The notes under the pieces were generated by a model, which was not told where the DNA came from, did not search any database, and worked only from the letters and a program-made list of their open reading frames with translations. Shown here piece after piece: positions 865 through 42,594 of a stretch of DNA of 64,000 nucleotides (the stretch's first letter is position 1; each line of letters starts with the position of its first letter). The stretch is from positions 41,665 through 105,664 of the IMG/VR virus record IMGVR_UViG_3300032322_001517, one strand, 5' to 3'. This DNA is from a virus. Made by a program: the position numbers and the translations under genes.

Positions 865-893
865 ATATTACTCTAGACCGGAATTAAAGTCAA
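865..893 (-). promoter_or_regulatory. Sigma70-like early promoter TTGACT-N17-TAATAT with ATTCCGG spacer motif
   Basis: One of four near-identical promoters; directly upstream of tRNA-Asn. Confidence 0.75.
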
Positions 894-2413
894 TAATGTA
901 TTTTATTCCCAACAACCAACATATCGATGCTTTTTGAAGCGAATTCTTTTTCAGCCGAAGATATCTTACTAGCTATTGGCTTCCCCGAAACATTAAGACT
1001 AGTATTCAGCAACGCTGGGCATTCAGTAATTTTATAAAACTCTTCTAATATAGATCTCAAAGCAGTACCATTTTTAGAAACTGTTTGAACTCTACATGTA
1101 CCATCAACATGAGTTACCGATGGAACCGATATCTTAGGTACTCCGACATATAGCATATATGGATTTTCATACATTAACCCAAAGCTATCTTTATGTTCTT
1201 CTAAAACAGAAGCACCAAATGGTCTGAAATATTCTCTATTCTTTATCTGATTGATAATATCTTTACCATTGGTAACTCTAGGATCAAAGAGTATAGATCT
1301 ATTACCTAATGCTCTTGGACCTATTTCACCATTGCCTTGATAAAGAGCTACGACTGCACCATCAGCTAAATGTTTAGCAACTATTTTTGCATTTTCCATA
1401 CTTAGAAAGTCTTTAGGAGCCTCATCAGTTGTGCTAAATGGGAAATTCTTCAACTTCATTTTAGGAAGATTGTATTTTCTCCTAAGCATTTCCATTGCAC
1501 CAATAGATAAACCTTCATCTCCGCAATACGGAACTACAACAAGATTAGGATATTTGTTTTTTAATAAAGTATTCCATATAACATTCTGCGCTACACCACC
1601 AGAATAACCTACACGATCATTTGGGGATACAAATTTATCAAACAACTCTAAAACGATTTCCCCTGTTCTTTCGTGAACAGTTCGAACCCAATTTAATTTT
1701 TGTTGTTTCGATAAACTTTGGGTGTTTAGAAAATTTAAATAATTATCCATATTAAAGAGAGTGTCGCCACCAGATACCCTCTTTCTATAAAGAGCATTTA
1801 CATTGTAAATATTATATTTTTGTAATACTTCAAGGTATTCATAATCTATGTTACCGTAAGATTGTAAACCCATCAATTTTCCAGGTCTGTCGATAGGTCT
1901 TCCGGTATTACTAAGTTCGTCAAAGAGATATGAAATATATGTTATGCCATGACCTATAGATCCATAATCTTGAACAATACCTTTAGTTATTAATTCATCA
2001 CCAAAGTATACATGCCAACAATCATTAACTAATCTATCAGCAGAATCTCTGTACTGAGGTCCAGATCCATCTAACACAATATTTTTATCTACGTCATGCA
2101 TAAAACAAACGCTCAATGCGTGAGCTAGATGATGATTGATAGATGTTATGTTTTTATTGACGCCTGTATCAAGTAATAATTGATAGAGTAAACTGTCAAC
2201 GACAACGATTTCATCCATATTTTGGAAAGATGTATTCCAGTATTTGGAAAAAATGCTATTAAAAAATGTTACACAAAGGTCAACATTAATCTTTTTAAGG
2301 CCAAAATGTTTAGAATCTAAAATTCTTTCCAACTTTAGATAATGTGTATTATCGCCATCAAAATAAGTAATATTTGTGTCGTGAGAATAACCACCAATAG
2401 ATAATAATTTCAT
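890..2413 (-). CDS. Carbamoyltransferase, NodU/CmcH/TobZ family
   Basis: HD...LER, HHLAHA, DGSG, GKLMGL..YG, SGGVAQN, E.GPRALGNRSIL, KNRE.FRPF, HVDGTCRVQTV, LLNTSLN motifs. Confidence 0.92.
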   Translation of the reverse strand: MKLLSIGGYSHDTNITYFDGDNTHYLKLERILDSKHFGLKKINVDLCVTFFNSIFSKYWNTSFQNMDEIVVVDSLLYQLLLDTGVNKNITSINHHLAHALSVCFMHDVDKNIVLDGSGPQYRDSADRLVNDCWHVYFGDELITKGIVQDYGSIGHGITYISYLFDELSNTGRPIDRPGKLMGLQSYGNIDYEYLEVLQKYNIYNVNALYRKRVSGGDTLFNMDNYLNFLNTQSLSKQQKLNWVRTVHERTGEIVLELFDKFVSPNDRVGYSGGVAQNVIWNTLLKNKYPNLVVVPYCGDEGLSIGAMEMLRRKYNLPKMKLKNFPFSTTDEAPKDFLSMENAKIVAKHLADGAVVALYQGNGEIGPRALGNRSILFDPRVTNGKDIINQIKNREYFRPFGASVLEEHKDSFGLMYENPYMLYVGVPKISVPSVTHVDGTCRVQTVSKNGTALRSILEEFYKITECPALLNTSLNVSGKPIASKISSAEKEFASKSIDMLVVGNKIHY

Positions 2414-2523: not shown

Positions 2524-2601
2524 TGGTCCTCTGTATCGGATTTGAACCGATGCTCTCCGCGCTTGAAAGGCGGGTATGTTTGACCGCTACACCAACAGAG
2601 G
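2524..2601 (-). tRNA. tRNA-Glu(UUC)
   Basis: Cloverleaf, loop CTTTCAA, encoded CCA; C:C mismatch or bulge in anticodon stem. Confidence 0.85.
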
Positions 2602-2892: not shown

Positions 2893-2963
2893 AATTTATG
2901 TGGCTTACGACTTAACACAGACTACATCCATCGACTTTCGTCTTTGGCTATACACATCAATCT

Positions 2964-3039
2964 TGGCTCGGGGTGATGGGCTCGAACCACCAACACACAG
3001 ATTCAAAGTCTGTAGTTCTACCAATTGAACTAACCCCGA
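2964..3039 (-). tRNA. tRNA-Gln(UUG)
   Basis: Cloverleaf, loop CTTTGAA, encoded CCA. Confidence 0.93.
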
Positions 3040-3041
3040 AT

Positions 3042-3204
3042 GTTGTTTCTACATAAACACTACATGTAGCCTAATTTTGGAGTCGGTTGCAGCCGTCCTT
3101 AGCTTCTGGCTCTGGTTATATCAGGACTGGAAAGAAGCCTTACCAGCCCGCCTAGATCGTGCGTCCACGAACGCTACCCAGTGCAGTGTTTATGAAGAAA
3201 CAAC
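3042..3204 (-). ncRNA. Putative ~160-nt structured RNA at the 5' end of the tRNA operon
   Basis: Roughly 22-bp terminal stem (GTTGTTTCT.CATAAACACTGCA / TGTAGTGTTTATG.AGAAACAAC) enclosing several hairpins. Confidence 0.65.
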
Positions 3205-3230
3205 CTTTCGATTGTTTCTAATTTCTAACG

Positions 3231-3243
3231 ATATCAAACAGCA
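3231..3243 (-). promoter_or_regulatory. boxA-like antitermination element TGCTGTTTGATAT
   Basis: Just downstream of the tRNA-operon promoter; resembles rrn leader boxA (TGCTCTTTAACA). Confidence 0.5.
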
Positions 3244-3255
3244 ACTTATATTCTT

Positions 3256-3284
3256 ATCTTACTTTATGCCGGAATAAAAATCAA
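3256..3284 (-). promoter_or_regulatory. Early promoter TTGATT-N17-TAAGAT driving the tRNA operon
   Basis: Shared TTTATTCCGG spacer motif. Confidence 0.75.
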
Positions 3285-3288
3285 GCAT

Positions 3289-3320
3289 AAAAAAAAGCGG
3301 GACTTTTTATGGTCCCGCTT
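3289..3320 (-). terminator. Rho-independent terminator
   Basis: AAGCGGGAC-loop-GTCCCGCTT followed by a T-run. Confidence 0.9.
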
Positions 3321-3341
3321 GAGTAACCTTATTCAGGAAAC

Positions 3342-3602
3342 TTAAACGAGACCCATCGCCTTGGCTTTATAACCAGCAGCGATAAGTTCACGCGATGGAG
3401 TACCAAAACGGTACTTTTGCGTGACGCGACCTTTACTATCTACATGACGATTGAGATAGATCGGGTAGCCGTCCATACGGAGCTGATAAACAGCATCATG
3501 CGGATTGGCAACATTATAACGTGCAGCAATCTGCTTGGCAGTGAGCTGTTCGCCGTTGACGACGAGAGCCTCATATACACGATCAACCTTGGTATTAGAC
3601 AT
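3342..3602 (-). CDS. Small winged-helix DNA-binding-like protein
   Basis: LTAKQIAARYNVANPHDAVYQLRMDGYPI wHTH pattern; AGGAG RBS; own promoter and terminator. Confidence 0.65.
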   Translation of the reverse strand: MSNTKVDRVYEALVVNGEQLTAKQIAARYNVANPHDAVYQLRMDGYPIYLNRHVDSKGRVTQKYRFGTPSRELIAAGYKAKAMGLV

Positions 3603-3633
3603 CAACATTCTCCTAAAGTTACATTATTTAGTC

Positions 3634-20020: not shown

Positions 20021-21061
20021 TTATTTCTTAACAGTTTTCGAGATAGCCTGTACATAACGATTTACTTGTGGATCGATATGATGAGTGCTTTCTGTCAATT
20101 CGCCTTCAAAAGTTTCTTCTTCAATATTTGAAGAATTGAATGAAGCTTCGCCCTTGAAATAATTTTCTTTGATGATTCTCAACTTCTTTTCATAAGTTTC
20201 AAGATTACCATCAAACTCGATACCTTCAGCAAGAGCTGCGAACTTTTCCTGCTGTGTTAGTGCAAGGTCAGAAGAAAGACCTTCGAAAATTTCATGAGCA
20301 TGAGATTCTACAAGAACACCCTTTAACTCAGTATTTTCTAGGATTACTTCATCGAGTTTACCTTCAAGTGCTTCTACCTTTTCAGCTAGAGCTTCAATAA
20401 CGTCAACCTTTTCCTGAGGAATATTGATAAAATGCTCAGCGAAAAGATTCTTCAAACCTTCCATAAACTCTTCAGTGAGTTCGTTACGAAGAGTTGATTC
20501 AATAGCTACTTCATTATCGCTCATCCATTGTTCCACAACATAATCGAGATAAGAATCTAGTCTAGAGTTAACTTCATTTTGGAACTGAGCTAGTTCTTCC
20601 TGAAGCATTAATTCATATTCTTCTTCAAGGCGAGCAGTTTCCAAAGTCAAGCGAGCAGAAACAGCAGCTTCGAATAGAGTTTCTACGCTTTCCTTAAATT
20701 CTTCTGAGAGGTCGTGTCCAGCAAACATTTCTTCAATGTCTTCCTTAACATTAACCTTACCCTTCATTGCAATAGTTGCAGCGTTTTTCTTTGAATTGTC
20801 GCCAACGCCATAGTCTTTATTTGGTCCAAACTGTGACATAGTAGCAGCAAATTTGTTTAGGTCATCTTTTGACATACCACCAGCTGCTGACATAATTGAA
20901 CTCAACAAGCCCAATTTCGATTTATCATCAGAAACTGACTTTGCTCCTGGCTTCAATGTGCTAGCAGCAAGAGTTTCTTCATCAAGTTCTTCATCAGCCT
21001 CAGACGCGTCAACCTGATCAACGATATCGTCTTCTAGCTCATTAGTTCTTTTGTTAGCCAT
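20021..21061 (-). CDS. 22: Prohead core scaffold gp22
   Basis: LSEEFK....LFEAAV, YLDYVVEQW..DN..AI; acidic coiled coil. Confidence 0.93.
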   Translation of the reverse strand: MANKRTNELEDDIVDQVDASEADEELDEETLAASTLKPGAKSVSDDKSKLGLLSSIMSAAGGMSKDDLNKFAATMSQFGPNKDYGVGDNSKKNAATIAMKGKVNVKEDIEEMFAGHDLSEEFKESVETLFEAAVSARLTLETARLEEEYELMLQEELAQFQNEVNSRLDSYLDYVVEQWMSDNEVAIESTLRNELTEEFMEGLKNLFAEHFINIPQEKVDVIEALAEKVEALEGKLDEVILENTELKGVLVESHAHEIFEGLSSDLALTQQEKFAALAEGIEFDGNLETYEKKLRIIKENYFKGEASFNSSNIEEETFEGELTESTHHIDPQVNRYVQAISKTVKK

Positions 21062-21091
21062 TAGAAAGGTCTCCTTTTAAAGAATTTAAAT

Positions 21092-21099
21092 TATTTATA
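21092..21099 (-). promoter_or_regulatory. Late promoter TATAAATA
   Basis: Upstream of gp22. Confidence 0.75.
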
Positions 21100-21772
21100 T
21101 GTTTTTATTTTTTGAGGCTAATGAAGATAAAAACTCTTCAAAAATAGCCAAACGTTGTTCTTCTAATTTTTTAGATGATAATCTATGAACTGATTTTTTG
21201 ATTGACTCTGCTTTTTCTTGCAACCAAACACCATTAGCTTCATCATAGAACCATTCTACATTTTCCATAATACCTTTAACAAAAGCTTCTGGTGCTGAAG
21301 GATCAGCAACAATGTCAGCAGCTGTTGAAAGTTTAAGATCGCTCTGAACAACCATAACTCCACGTTCTTCTTTAAGAGAACCCATAGCTCTAGAAGAAAC
21401 ACCAAGCTGACCGCCTGACTCCATAATACCACGAGCAATATTGCCCATTGGCGTTTCGGTAATTTTAGCTTTACCAATAAAGTTGTTCTTATCTCTTTTT
21501 AGTTCAGTGATAATATGAGATACACGATCAAGATTAATTGATGGACCAGAAGGATGACCTAGTTCGCCGTAAGCACGGTTATGTGATACGACCTCTGTCA
21601 TATAACGCTTAACTTCGCTCTCAAGAACATTGATAGGATACATACGACCGTTACGGTTTTTGATTTCTGCCTGAAGGAAAATACCCTCAATGTACATATC
21701 CTTCTTGCCAGACTTTTCGTTGGCTTCAGTAACGTACTGAACATTTTCTGTAAGTTCTGTAATGAGTTTCAT
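21095..21772 (-). CDS. 21: Prohead protease gp21
   Basis: MKLITE, IEGIFLQ..KNRNGRMY, GELGHP, GVSSR, DIVADPSAP. Confidence 0.97.
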   Translation of the reverse strand: MKLITELTENVQYVTEANEKSGKKDMYIEGIFLQAEIKNRNGRMYPINVLESEVKRYMTEVVSHNRAYGELGHPSGPSINLDRVSHIITELKRDKNNFIGKAKITETPMGNIARGIMESGGQLGVSSRAMGSLKEERGVMVVQSDLKLSTAADIVADPSAPEAFVKGIMENVEWFYDEANGVWLQEKAESIKKSVHRLSSKKLEEQRLAIFEEFLSSLASKNKNI

Positions 21773-21773
21773 T

Positions 21774-22019
21774 TTATCCTCTATAAGCAGAAGCTGTAGC
21801 AAAAACTGCTACGTTTGACGCTATTGTATCTGTTGGGTTCTTAGAAACAAAAATGTATTGATTAGCAGGAATAGTAAATGTTCCTAGTGTTGTTCCTGTA
21901 TTGGAAGCAACAGTGATCAAGGCTGCTGATGGTGCACCAATATAAACAATCGGTGAGTTGTAAACATTATTAGCAGTAGTTAAAGATATTTGATTAGCTG
22001 ATGCTTTAATAATATTCAT
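21774..22019 (-). CDS. Small head-module protein
   Basis: Tightly packed ORF between head genes. Confidence 0.7.
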   Translation of the reverse strand: MNIIKASANQISLTTANNVYNSPIVYIGAPSAALITVASNTGTTLGTFTIPANQYIFVSKNPTDTIASNVAVFATASAYRG

Positions 22020-22900
22020 TATACTCTTCCTGTATCGCCAACCATGCTACTTGGAGTAGCAACGTGAGTATCTGCTTGTTCGCTCTTCATAGCCTTTTTA
22101 CGGATGTAGGCAAAGTAAACTTTTTTGCCTTTTTCATCACCATACTGCTTTTGCATATTGGCTTTCATACCTGAATCGTCGTATTTTGACTTTAGCTTCT
22201 CTTCTCTTTTTTTGTCAGCTGCAGTCATTTCGCGTTCTTCAATTTTCTTTCTATCAGTGATAAGCTGACGACCTTCCTTTTTCTTACCATTATATCTTGG
22301 CTCTTTATCTGTAGCGCCAGCTGACTTGTCCTCTGAACAAGACTTCATGCCATGTACTTCGCACATAGTACCAGCTTCTGTCATATTACATTTAGAATCT
22401 TCTGTCATTTCAGTTGCATAATAATCAGCAGCTGTTTGGATATAATCTTTAGCTAAAGTAATTTTCGACTGAACCCATTCAGGAAGATTAGTATCTGGCT
22501 TCAACATACCCATAAGTTGCTGAGAGTGATTCATAATAGACTTAATTTGGGAGATAGCCATCTCGCCTTCATAGTCATACTCTCTAGTATCCTTAGCTTC
22601 ATTTGCTAACTTGTAAGCAGTTTTAGCTTTTGGATCTGGGTCATGACCATGGCGTTCCATCTTAGCTTTTTTTACCTTAGAGGCATTGTAAATATCATCA
22701 TCATTTCCTACACGATCTGGAAATTTTTCAGTTTTATGAAGAGCAACAAAATCTCTTTCGTCCTTCATTTTACCAGCATAATCTACGCCTGGATCATCAC
22801 CAGTTGAACCTGGAACAATTTTAGGAGTTCCTATTGCACCATAAATGCGTGTACTAGATTTGTTTACACCTTTAAGAATATCACTAAGATCCTTAGCCAT
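22019..22900 (-). CDS. Putative prohead core / internal head protein
   Basis: Lies where T4 has gp67/gp68; highly charged; YEGEMA..Q...LPEWVQSKIT motif. Confidence 0.6.
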   Translation of the reverse strand: MAKDLSDILKGVNKSSTRIYGAIGTPKIVPGSTGDDPGVDYAGKMKDERDFVALHKTEKFPDRVGNDDDIYNASKVKKAKMERHGHDPDPKAKTAYKLANEAKDTREYDYEGEMAISQIKSIMNHSQQLMGMLKPDTNLPEWVQSKITLAKDYIQTAADYYATEMTEDSKCNMTEAGTMCEVHGMKSCSEDKSAGATDKEPRYNGKKKEGRQLITDRKKIEEREMTAADKKREEKLKSKYDDSGMKANMQKQYGDEKGKKVYFAYIRKKAMKSEQADTHVATPSSMVGDTGRV

Positions 22901-40773: not shown

Positions 40774-42594
40774 TTACGAAAAATACGAACCTGTAACGCC
40801 TGTGCCAGTAGTTTGGAGTCTAGGAAATGATAAGTTAGAACCAGTAGAAGTGGTTTCGTTTGAATAACGATAAATTTCTACTGAAGCTAGAGGACTTGTC
40901 CAAAAATTGTTGGATTGACCATAAGAAACTATACCAGCTACATTAGAACTAACAGAACCGCCTGCCCATCTAAATGTAGAAAGCGTAGTACCAGAAGTAA
41001 CAGTATCTCCTGAATATGTATATTTATACGTACTTCTATTTTCTCCAGCTGATTGGATACCGCTTGTAATAAGTCCTACAGTAGAGTTTCCTAATGGAAC
41101 AGCCCATCCTTTAGGATTTGTTAAAGATGTTGCAGCTGCCATAACGTTAGAAGAGTATGTATACTTTTCAGTAGTAGCGATATAGTTAATTGTATTAGAA
41201 CCACCACCAGCATAAATTGCCACTGTCGACTTATCTGTTATAGCTGAATGTAACCATCTTCTTGTAATCAGAGCAGCTGCCGAAGTTCTAGTTTCAGCTG
41301 CATAATTATATTTGTCATGCCTTCCAGCAAAAGTTCCTGGCGAAGTAAGGTTTATCGCGCCACCAGAAACATAACCATCTGTTGTAGTTCCAGTAGCAGC
41401 TCCGTAATTAGCAGCATTAGCGATCGTAGCTCCTGCTGCTACAGCATCTCCCGAATAGGTATACTTAGCAGTAGTCGCAATAGGAGAAGCCGTTTGATTT
41501 GCGCCAGCGAAGAAAATAGCTCTGGTTTCATTTCCAGAACCAGCAGTGCCCATAGCGTGTCTTACAAGGGTAAGGTTAGTTCCAGTTGTAGTAGCGTCTG
41601 TCGCATAATAATATTTTGATGTAAGTGCTGTTGAAACTGTAGTATAACCACCAGCAATGACGCCAAATTTAGAAGAAGAGAGACCGTAGCCAGAAGACAT
41701 GGATATTTGGCCGCTAGGAACACTTAGTAAAGTTCTTACGCTTAAATCGTCCAAACTATTTGATAATGTACTAGGGAAACCAAGAGCCAAGTTTACGTTA
41801 GACATACCGATACTACCAGAAGCTGGTAAAGCAACAGGAGTCCATTCCCAAGAAACTATAATTGCTCCTTGTGCTCCTTCACTGTAATTACTTCCGTCAG
41901 GTTGCCCAGCACTAATTATCGCAGTTCCGCCACCACCGCCGCCAAAAAGACCACCAGAACCTCCAGGGTAAAATGTGTCTGGCCCATCATCACCAGCATC
42001 CCTGCTTTTGGCTCCAGTTCCACCAGACCCAGCATAGTTAGTACCATAAAAATTACCACGAGGAGCGTCTCCGCCCGTGGATGTTACGCTTGCAGCGCCA
42101 CCAGTTGCTCCTCCAGCGCCTGAAGTACGTCCACTGCCATTACCGCCCGCTGCAGTATCACCACCTGCTCCACCACCACCACCATAGTTTTGTCCAGATG
42201 AATGTGTTGCTGAAGCTCCGTTACCACCGTTCCATTTGGTTGTACCAGTGGAATTAGTAGCAGAACCACCTGTGCCACCAGTGCCAGAAGTCGCAGCTCC
42301 GCCGTTACCACCCTTGGCTAATACAGTACCACTATTGAACGAAGTATCACCGCCTACGCCATTAATAGCACCACCAGCTCCAATACTAACCGGAATTGAA
42401 GCTCCAATAGTTAACGAAATATTATTACTGATTGCACGTGCGCCACCGCCGCCGCCACCAGTTGCTGCTCCACCAGTGTTAGCGCCACCACCACCGCCAC
42501 CACCAATACAGGAAACGCTGTTATTTGAGTTGTTCCAAGATTTTGGTACGGTCCAAGTTGTGCCGGAAATAATAACAACTGTGCTTCTTGGCAT
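40774..42594 (-). CDS. Glycine-rich protein with Kelch-like repeats; putative tail adhesin
   Basis: N-terminal GGGGGG domain; about six ~47-aa GG...T.KY.Y......L repeats. Confidence 0.7.
   Translation of the reverse strand: MPRSTVVIISGTTWTVPKSWNNSNNSVSCIGGGGGGGANTGGAATGGGGGGARAISNNISLTIGASIPVSIGAGGAINGVGGDTSFNSGTVLAKGGNGGAATSGTGGTGGSATNSTGTTKWNGGNGASATHSSGQNYGGGGGAGGDTAAGGNGSGRTSGAGGATGGAASVTSTGGDAPRGNFYGTNYAGSGGTGAKSRDAGDDGPDTFYPGGSGGLFGGGGGGTAIISAGQPDGSNYSEGAQGAIIVSWEWTPVALPASGSIGMSNVNLALGFPSTLSNSLDDLSVRTLLSVPSGQISMSSGYGLSSSKFGVIAGGYTTVSTALTSKYYYATDATTTGTNLTLVRHAMGTAGSGNETRAIFFAGANQTASPIATTAKYTYSGDAVAAGATIANAANYGAATGTTTDGYVSGGAINLTSPGTFAGRHDKYNYAAETRTSAAALITRRWLHSAITDKSTVAIYAGGGSNTINYIATTEKYTYSSNVMAAATSLTNPKGWAVPLGNSTVGLITSGIQSAGENRSTYKYTYSGDTVTSGTTLSTFRWAGGSVSSNVAGIVSYGQSNNFWTSPLASVEIYRYSNETTSTGSNLSFPRLQTTGTGVTGSYFS

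Follow-up and report, generated by a model that had tools for sequence, protein, structure and literature searches.

A conserved pseudoknotted RNA closed by a long stem heads the tRNA operon of an uncultured T4-like phage from fresh water

Introduction

What is the folded stretch that stands between the promoter of a phage transfer RNA (tRNA) operon and its first tRNA gene, and what could such an RNA do for the phage? We asked this of positions 3042 to 3204, minus strand, of a 64,000-nucleotide (nt) stretch of DNA (“the window”), which covers positions 41,665 to 105,664 of the IMG/VR virus record IMGVR_UViG_3300032322_001517, a record of 105.7 kb whose genome is estimated to be 63% complete. 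An initial annotation of the window had described the stretch as a structured RNA of about 160 nt leading the operon and had taken it for an abundant stable RNA, possibly a decoy for polymerase or defence nucleases.

The RNA is real, conserved and well supported, and it matches no catalogued RNA family. The interpretation offered by the initial annotation is partly supported; it overlooked a frame resembling that of ribosomal RNA (rRNA) operons and the exchange of interiors within that frame. The best explanation, to which we assign a probability of roughly 0.6 from comparison of sequences, is that the stretch encodes an exchangeable cargo non-coding RNA, a pseudoknotted core held in a stem of 22 base pairs (bp), which would be transcribed first in the main tRNA operon, be released by RNase P and probably RNase III, and act in trans.

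Results

The stretch folds as a pseudoknotted three-way junction

A structured RNA at 3042–3204 was confirmed, and every pairing that the initial annotation had listed could be located in the window. The 163-nt stretch folds at −61.9 kcal/mol, compared with −41.8 ± 4.1 kcal/mol for dinucleotide shuffles (z = −4.9), and none of 200 shuffles folded as well.

To collect homologues, we fetched loci encoding relatives of an 88-amino-acid protein whose gene lies upstream of the RNA and scanned for exact core motifs. A covariance model was built from seven copies and then run on all the sequence collected. It returned 32 matches, 31 of them distinct, at 121–197 bits and with pairwise identities of 64–100%. 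The homologues come from uncultured phage contigs, nearly all from lake metagenomes.

In the alignment fitted to the model, 94.8% of cells were paired compared with 84.4% in shuffles, a margin that the kinship of the homologues inflates, and 24 of 51 pairs had changed on both sides; sliding the partners by one to three columns lowered pairing to 35–45%. A structure-blind MAFFT alignment gave a similar picture (92.9% of cells paired, 23 of 53 pairs with double changes, 33–44% in the slid controls). Between the two alignments, 23–24 pairs had changed on both sides. From these comparisons, the fold is a three-way junction (P1, P2 and P6) with hairpins P3 to P5 and an H-type pseudoknot, in which a 115-nt core sits in the 22-bp stem. 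Its elements, from the 5′ end of the RNA, are as follows.

3182–3204, minus strand: 5′ strand of the closing stem P1, pairing with 3042–3064
3178–3181, minus strand: 5′ strand of P2 (CUGG), pairing with 3112–3115 (CCAG)
3155–3172, minus strand: hairpin P3 with GACG loop at 3162–3165; five of seven pairs covary, loop invariant in 31 sequences
3124–3149, minus strand: hairpin P4 with a 12-nt loop (3131–3142) that holds the 5′ strand of the pseudoknot (3133–3139); four to five pairs covary
3112–3123, minus strand: A-rich joining strand (UGAUAUAA), then the 3′ strand of P2 (CCAG); C-U-N-A-N-A-Y-A-A-C-C-N-G-A nearly invariant
3101–3110, minus strand: 5′ strand of P6 (GCC, 3108–3110) and 3′ strand of the pseudoknot (AGAAGCU, 3101–3107), from covariation
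3079–3098, minus strand: hairpin P5 (GGA-CGG / CCG-AC-UCC); GCA loop and GAC bulge invariant
3065–3078, minus strand: invariant AAAUU strand, 3′ strand of P6 (GGC, 3069–3071) and short linker to P1, from the alignment
3042–3064, minus strand: 3′ strand of P1, from the minimum-energy fold and covariation

The terminal helix of about 22 bp that had been proposed was borne out. P1 reads GUUGUYUCUUCAYRRAYACU across the alignment; 20–21 of its pairs are modelled, seven to eight of them with changes on both sides, and 95–99% of its cells are paired. The three internal hairpins described earlier also stood up to comparison: TCGTG-GACG-CACGA corresponds to P3 and GGGCTGG/CCAGTCC to P4, each with the covarying pairs given above, and GGA-CGG/CCG-TCC corresponds to P5, whose inner helix varies among CGG/CCG, GGG/CCC, UGG/CCA and CCGG/CCGG.

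The pseudoknot between the P4 loop (GGCTTCT) and the downstream AGAAGCT had been put forward as a possibility and is now upheld by three adjacent double changes. In this helix, GGCUUC/GAAGCU in the window, pairs 69-101, 70-100 and 71-99 switch jointly: they read UUC/GAA (UA/UA/CG) in 11 sequences and CAU/AUG (CG/AU/UA) in 20, and no cell is broken. The pairs of 66-68 with 102-104 do not vary, and 99.5% of the cells of the helix are paired in the MAFFT alignment.

One proposed pairing did not survive. The GTAGC/GCTAC continuation of the terminal helix is confined to the window, and in relatives the 3′ partner is GCUUU, GUUUU or AUUUU. It was rejected on this comparison, and its place is taken by two short helices that had been overlooked. 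P2 has four pairs, C-N-GG/CC-N-G, the second of which is UA in eight sequences, AU in 18, GU in three and GC in one. P6 has three pairs, A-Y-C/G-R-U, with a middle pair that is CG in 13 sequences, UA in seven and UG in three; in the other eight sequences, which form the clade of the window, it reads GCC/GGC, shifted by one base.

Within the core, conservation is higher at unpaired than at paired positions (30 of 54 versus 21 of 62 invariant). This points to tertiary or intermolecular contacts, and it is what a functional interior would show and a mere spacer would not.

One further covariation lies outside the helices. Columns 31, 60 and 77 (window positions 3174, 3145 and 3128), that is, the variable base of an invariant GUA-N-CG and the P4 pair 60-77, track each other: G occurs with U-A, C with G-C, and U with A-U or G-U. 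These columns may form a base triple or may just share ancestry, as they have no helical context and the states fall into three clades only. Three resemblances seen by eye were judged too weak to pursue: that of the AAAAUU...AUGUA strand to the site selected by RegA in vitro (SELEX), that of CUAAGGA to a Shine-Dalgarno sequence, and that of GGGUAGCG/GGACGC to the c-di-GMP-I aptamer.

The RNA matches no known family and is read from one strand

We ran the Rfam scan that the initial annotation had suggested. Rfam 15 contained no family matching 3042–3204, either at the gathering threshold on the window or at E ≤ 10 on 2900–3350. At 18 related loci, tRNAs alone matched Rfam. A blastn search of cultured phages (INPHARED) returned the neighboring tRNA as its only match, and the RNA had no match in E. 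coli genomes, so that neither the rRNA genes nor any other part of the E. coli chromosome is detectably similar to it. When one representative genome each of 185,579 bacterial and archaeal species was searched, there were three chance pattern matches, none of which was upheld by the covariance model.

A 22-bp inverted repeat around a core of about 115 bp could also be the mark of a DNA-level mobile element with terminal inverted repeats, like a miniature inverted-repeat transposable element, or of a recombination scar, in which case no functional RNA need exist. The number and order of units also vary among related phages, as such an origin would allow. However, the RNA occurs once in the 105.7-kb record, where it is the only cassette with this stem, and relatives likewise carry a single copy, always at the same locus and in the same orientation; dispersed copies were not found. 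The internal hairpins and the pseudoknot covary, the pair G66-U104 is invariant and G-U pairs are frequent (these would be C-A mismatches on the opposite strand), and the reverse strand scores far below the forward one (30–40 versus 120–197 bits). The G-U pairs and the much lower reverse-strand scores identify the RNA strand as the strand of the tRNAs. We therefore regard a mobile inverted-repeat element as largely refuted, and the least credible of the explanations considered here.

The RNA lies where tRNA processing would release it

On the minus strand, the 88-amino-acid gene and its terminator are followed by a promoter-like TTGATT-17-TAAGAT, the RNA and six tRNA genes, the first of which begins at 3039.

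2964–3039, minus strand: tRNA-Gln(UUG), first tRNA of the operon, 2 nt past the stem; found by ARAGORN and by Rfam tRNA (63.8 bits)

The earlier statement that the RNA ends 2 nt ahead of tRNA-Gln is therefore correct. The RNA lies on the tRNA strand and upstream of the tRNA array in all relatives, which supports the view of a conserved structured non-coding RNA under the tRNA-operon promoter. In 18 of 32 homologous contexts a tRNA, for Gln, Lys, Asn or Pro, begins 2–7 nt past the RNA, so that cleavage by RNase P would define the 3′ end of the RNA; release by tRNA processing, as first proposed, is thus supported at this end. In the remaining contexts, 60–1000 nt of other non-coding sequence precede the tRNA, and where inspected these held stem-closed or other folded elements.

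A second conserved element, about 90 nt long (UUGUAGCAGUAUGGCACUGCUGGUGAAGCACCUACGGAGAUGGUAGG...AAAUGCCAA), was seen directly ahead of the first tRNA in several relatives (L104 3672–3763, L121 3247–3338, L013 ~3160–3245 and L112 ~690–770; also L072, L074 and L081). It has neither the constant stem nor a match in Rfam.

The location directly upstream of an RNA that has to be cut free, together with a compact pseudoknotted fold and many invariant junction nucleotides of the kind typical of aptamers and small ribozymes, raises another possibility: the RNA could sense a ligand or cleave itself, helping to free the first tRNA. This is improbable. No riboswitch or ribozyme family of Rfam matched even at E ≤ 10, there is no terminator or start codon downstream for a switch to control, and the downstream cut is already explained by RNase P.

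A boxA-like motif and an alternative hairpin precede the stem

We next consider the leader region of the operon, which has three features.

3256–3284, minus strand: probable tRNA-operon promoter, TTGATT (3284–3279), 17-nt spacer, TAAGAT (3261–3256), read by eye
3231–3242, minus strand: boxA-like 12-mer GCUGUUUGAUAU in the transcribed leader, the sole exact GCTSTTTGAYAW match in the window
3196–3219, minus strand: leader hairpin AGAAACAAUC-GAAA-GGUUGUUUCU, an alternative pairing, as its 3′ arm doubles as the base of the P1 5′ strand

The promoter agrees with the consensus at 8 of 12 positions and fell under the cut-off of the promoter scanner; relatives have TTGACT/TTGACA-17-TATAAT at the equivalent place. 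It sets a plausible start point, with which the earlier estimate that the RNA begins about 45 nt past the start of transcription is consistent. The promoters of the two tRNA operons of the window (3284–3256 and 893–865, minus strand) have the motif TT(A/T)ATTCCGG in common, which lies in the spacer downstream of the −35 box.

Most related operons carry a version of the boxA-like motif (GCUCUUUGACAU/GCUGUUUGACAU) 27–42 nt ahead of the first stem, within a conserved leader motif of 12–18 nt that reads GCUCUUUGACAUUGUUGG or GCUGUUUGACAU, and the order is promoter, boxA-like motif, small hairpin, stem. The boxA of E. coli rrnH is TGCTCTTTAACAA, to which the motif of the relatives (GCUCUUUGACAU) is identical at 10 of 12 positions and that of the window (GCUGUUUGAUAU) at 8 of 12. 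At two loci, L087 and L090, promoter, boxA-like motif and RNA are placed inside the tRNA cluster. The short second tRNA operon of the window (846–611) has neither the boxA-like motif nor the stem. L116, L093 and L121 lack the boxA-like leader and have in its place, about 100 nt upstream of the RNA, a different folded stretch that is also conserved (..AGCCCCUGACUGGUACU..GGUGGUUUCCAGCAGGG..).

The leader hairpin is kept in relatives, where its 5′ arm tracks the changes of the stem (GAAACAA/UUGUUUC, GAGACAA/UUGUCUC and GAGAUAA/UUAUCUC) with either GAAA or UUCG as the loop. When the leader was folded as a whole, the structure of minimum energy kept P1 in preference to this hairpin.

These observations bring in a cis-acting alternative, namely that the sole role of stem and core is to aid the transcription, folding or processing of the tRNA operon, and that the piece cut out does nothing further. 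The leader could then give RNase III a point of entry, act as a put-like antiterminator RNA or shield the 5′ end. Its position at the head of the operon beside a boxA-like motif speaks for this, as do the alternative pairings of leader hairpin and P1, which follow each other's changes and could adjust how readily RNase P reaches the first tRNA. In one relative, L002, the constant stem carries just a bare 48-nt hairpin (2847–2894), and RNase III reportedly contributes to the maturation of T4 tRNAs (PMC4810235). On the other hand, a processing site needs no 30 invariant unpaired nucleotides, no pseudoknot and no three-way junction, and the core is kept although the downstream tRNA changes among Gln, Lys, Asn and Pro or other RNAs are inserted between.

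One stem closes many unrelated interiors

The comparison of homologous loci bears further on this choice. At the same locus, relatives carry other RNAs closed by a nearly identical stem base (GUUGUYUCUUCA.../...UGWAGARACAA). The units that share this stem are 48–200 nt long, stand one to three in tandem and have at least 15 unrelated types of interior, after removal of reverse-strand duplicates and chance matches; the basal sequence GUUGUYUCUUC of P1 is common to at least 15 interiors other than its own. The common locus and the tandem order of the units are direct observations. None of the alternative interiors matched Rfam. Judged by its stem, the RNA is a member of a family of constant-stem cassettes in phage tRNA operons.

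Some of the other interiors carry a hairpin of the tRNA T-arm type (GGUUCGAnUCC), namely at L004 2909–3027, L005 2910–3028, L014 2842–2947, L081 489–611 and L089. In L005, ARAGORN calls one interior a 95-nt “tRNA-His” (2923–3017), a tRNA look-alike whose acceptor stem is extended into the 22-bp stem.

Very different interiors in one frame suggest that the frame serves processing and the interior something else. A purely cis-acting leader is therefore a possible explanation but a clearly weaker one than a trans-acting RNA carried as exchangeable cargo.

Discussion

How the RNA might be made and what it might do

A trans-acting cargo RNA would be made in the following way. Host polymerase would start about 45 nt upstream of the RNA, and the boxA-like element would recruit host NusB/NusE, allowing the long untranslated operon to escape Rho termination as rRNA operons do. 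As has been proposed for rRNA, the Nus factors may also retain the stem's 5′ strand close to the exit channel. The leader hairpin would hold this strand first, and pairing with the 3′ strand after synthesis of the core would then create an analogue of the leader-trailer helix. A cut by RNase P at tRNA-Gln would set the 3′ end; the 5′ end would come from cleavage by host RNase III or from trimming up to the stem, and the product would be a stable RNA with closed ends. The core would be the functional part and one of many interchangeable interiors; its most likely mode of action is binding in trans to a factor of the host or the phage.

Several observations weigh against this account. The pseudoknot occurs in two states only, so that a single evolutionary event may explain the switch, and kinship among the homologues (64–100% identical) inflates the shuffle statistics, whose significance is overstated. 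The other interiors were found by searching with the stem sequence; the sharing of the stem is thus partly by construction, and the count is a minimum. With a gap of just 2 nt between stem and tRNA, RNase P may be impeded as long as the stem is neither opened nor cut. The phage of the window and two relatives were searched for an RNase III gene and none was found, so that a host enzyme has to be assumed. The boxA-like motif of the window has G where the E. coli boxA has C, and in lambda the nutR change C38A weakens the binding of NusB/NusE (PMC2800207). Because the motif alters a C that is important in lambda nutR we call it boxA-like, and we only infer that NusB/NusE would bind.

A more far-reaching proposal is tentative, and we think it rather unlikely to hold. 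It is that lake T4-like phages use the rRNA-operon-style frame to make a changing repertoire of folded RNAs early and in bulk, as trans-acting decoys or sponges that occupy host factors, for example nucleases of defence systems, enzymes of RNA processing or the nucleotides of immune signalling, and that the pseudoknotted RNA would be a widespread member of this repertoire with a target of its own. The swapping of the interior while the stem is kept is the pattern expected of parts under host pressure.

For phage biology, the RNA adds a well-supported new fold that joins a three-way junction to a pseudoknot, has 30 unpaired nucleotides that do not vary and lacks a counterpart in Rfam. The frame also offers handles for experiments, since the boxA-like motif, the stem and the core can each be mutated separately.

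Genes around the RNA and other features of the window

The genes upstream of the RNA include those of T4 type for the clamp loader (gp44/gp62) and the translational repressor RegA. The closest cultured relatives of the phage are distant T4-like phages of Synechococcus, Stenotrophomonas and Methylophilales. The 88-amino-acid gene used to fetch the homologous loci lies at 3342–3608 (minus strand), encodes a winged-helix protein and has a terminator at its end (3320–3295); this protein is kept beside tRNA operons in more than 80 phage contigs.

Nine tRNAs were the sole Rfam matches in the whole window at the gathering threshold. One tRNA of the operon (2524–2601, minus strand; 54 bits with Rfam tRNA) has the anticodon UCA and is labelled tRNA-SeC by ARAGORN; it could be a candidate suppressor of opal (UGA) codons. 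Related phages have an odd 69-nt “tRNA-???” at a similar place. Between the two tRNA clusters lies a gene (890–2413, minus strand) for a 507-amino-acid carbamoyltransferase of the NodU/CmcH type (Pfam Carbam_trans_N/C; PHROG 1601, 3e-123). The other gaps between tRNAs in the window, 2893–2963 and 2602–2653, folded no better than shuffles.

Comparison with known systems

Three known systems invite comparison with the RNA: Y RNAs, the small RNAs of the T4 tRNA cluster and rRNA operons. Like Y RNAs and YrlA, it combines a modular, structured head with a long stem in which its 5′ and 3′ ends pair; some Y RNAs are also transcribed together with tRNAs, among them Yrn2 of D. radiodurans (PMC4201824). 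The RNA could then be a Y-RNA-like partner of a candidate Ro60-like protein encoded by the phage about 22 kb away, with the closing stem as a docking handle. Outside the window, at G000 20565–22735 (locus L139), the gene for this protein stands after six small RNAs that are closed by stems and carry a C(A/C)GCA signature. The protein has 479 amino acids and DUF2828/DUF7788; it was not detected by the Pfam TROVE model and had no match among PDB sequences. The loop of P5 reads C-N-GCA-A, a likeness to the signature of those six RNAs that is a lead only.

The differences are more numerous. Unlike Y RNAs, the phage RNA has no match to Y_RNA or YrlA in Rfam and no mimic of a T- or D-arm: the Ro60-binding motif GNCGAAN0-1G (PMC4201824) is absent from the P1 stem near the 5′ end, and a T-/D-arm look-alike hairpin of the GGUUCGAAUCC type is absent from the core. 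UCGAAAG is confined to the leader hairpin, in whose loop relatives have CUUCGG instead. The shared five-letter motif stands in a different structural context, and the Y-like units of the genome itself have a different handle, of 7–10 bp. At about 22 kb, the protein gene lies farther off than the roughly 4 kb within which a Ro60/TROVE gene would be looked for beside a Y RNA. No TROVE match was found in G000, G001 or G002, and the RNA is present in two near-complete relatives, G002 (98% complete) and G001 (85%), that have neither TROVE nor DUF7788. The link to Ro60 is thus not supported and is largely excluded; we consider it very unlikely, more so than an aptamer or ribozyme.

The initial annotation had pointed to RNAs C and D of T4, and as an analogy this holds: rnaC and rnaD, whose function is still unknown (PMC3014915, PMC9697503), are likewise small non-tRNA RNAs within the tRNA cluster of a T4-type phage. 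As homology it fails. They are encoded at the end of the T4 cluster farthest from the promoter, rnaC has a tRNA-type T-arm and lacks a 22-bp closing stem, and the folds differ; when the covariance model was run with filters off on the T4 tRNA region, the best score was 6.9 bits (E = 0.42). The T4 leader ahead of tRNA-Gln has only an 11-bp hairpin.

The closest parallel in layout is to rRNA operons, in which boxA-to-boxC spacing, leader-trailer helices and looping by the antitermination complex have been described (PMC10250234; PMC4807359). In the leader of E. coli rrnH, boxA is succeeded by a boxC that lies within the 5′ strand of the leader-trailer helix around 16S. The phage operon has a similar series: a promoter, a boxA-like 12-mer, a few tens of nucleotides, a long-range helix of at least 20 bp around a structured RNA, and then tRNAs. 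The enclosing helix, here P1, is upheld by covariation. As rRNA operons repeat boxA before 23S, L087 and L090 repeat promoter, boxA-like motif and stem within the tRNA cluster. The order of the leader is different, since in the phage the hairpin comes after the boxA-like motif, as in lambda nut, and not ahead of it. The contents of the frame also differ, as it encloses a 115-nt RNA of novel fold and one stem sequence is reused for many unrelated interiors. Taken together, the comparison suggests that phage tRNA operons may work on principles taken from rRNA operons, namely Nus-dependent antitermination together with a leader-trailer helix, to make RNAs that are not tRNAs.
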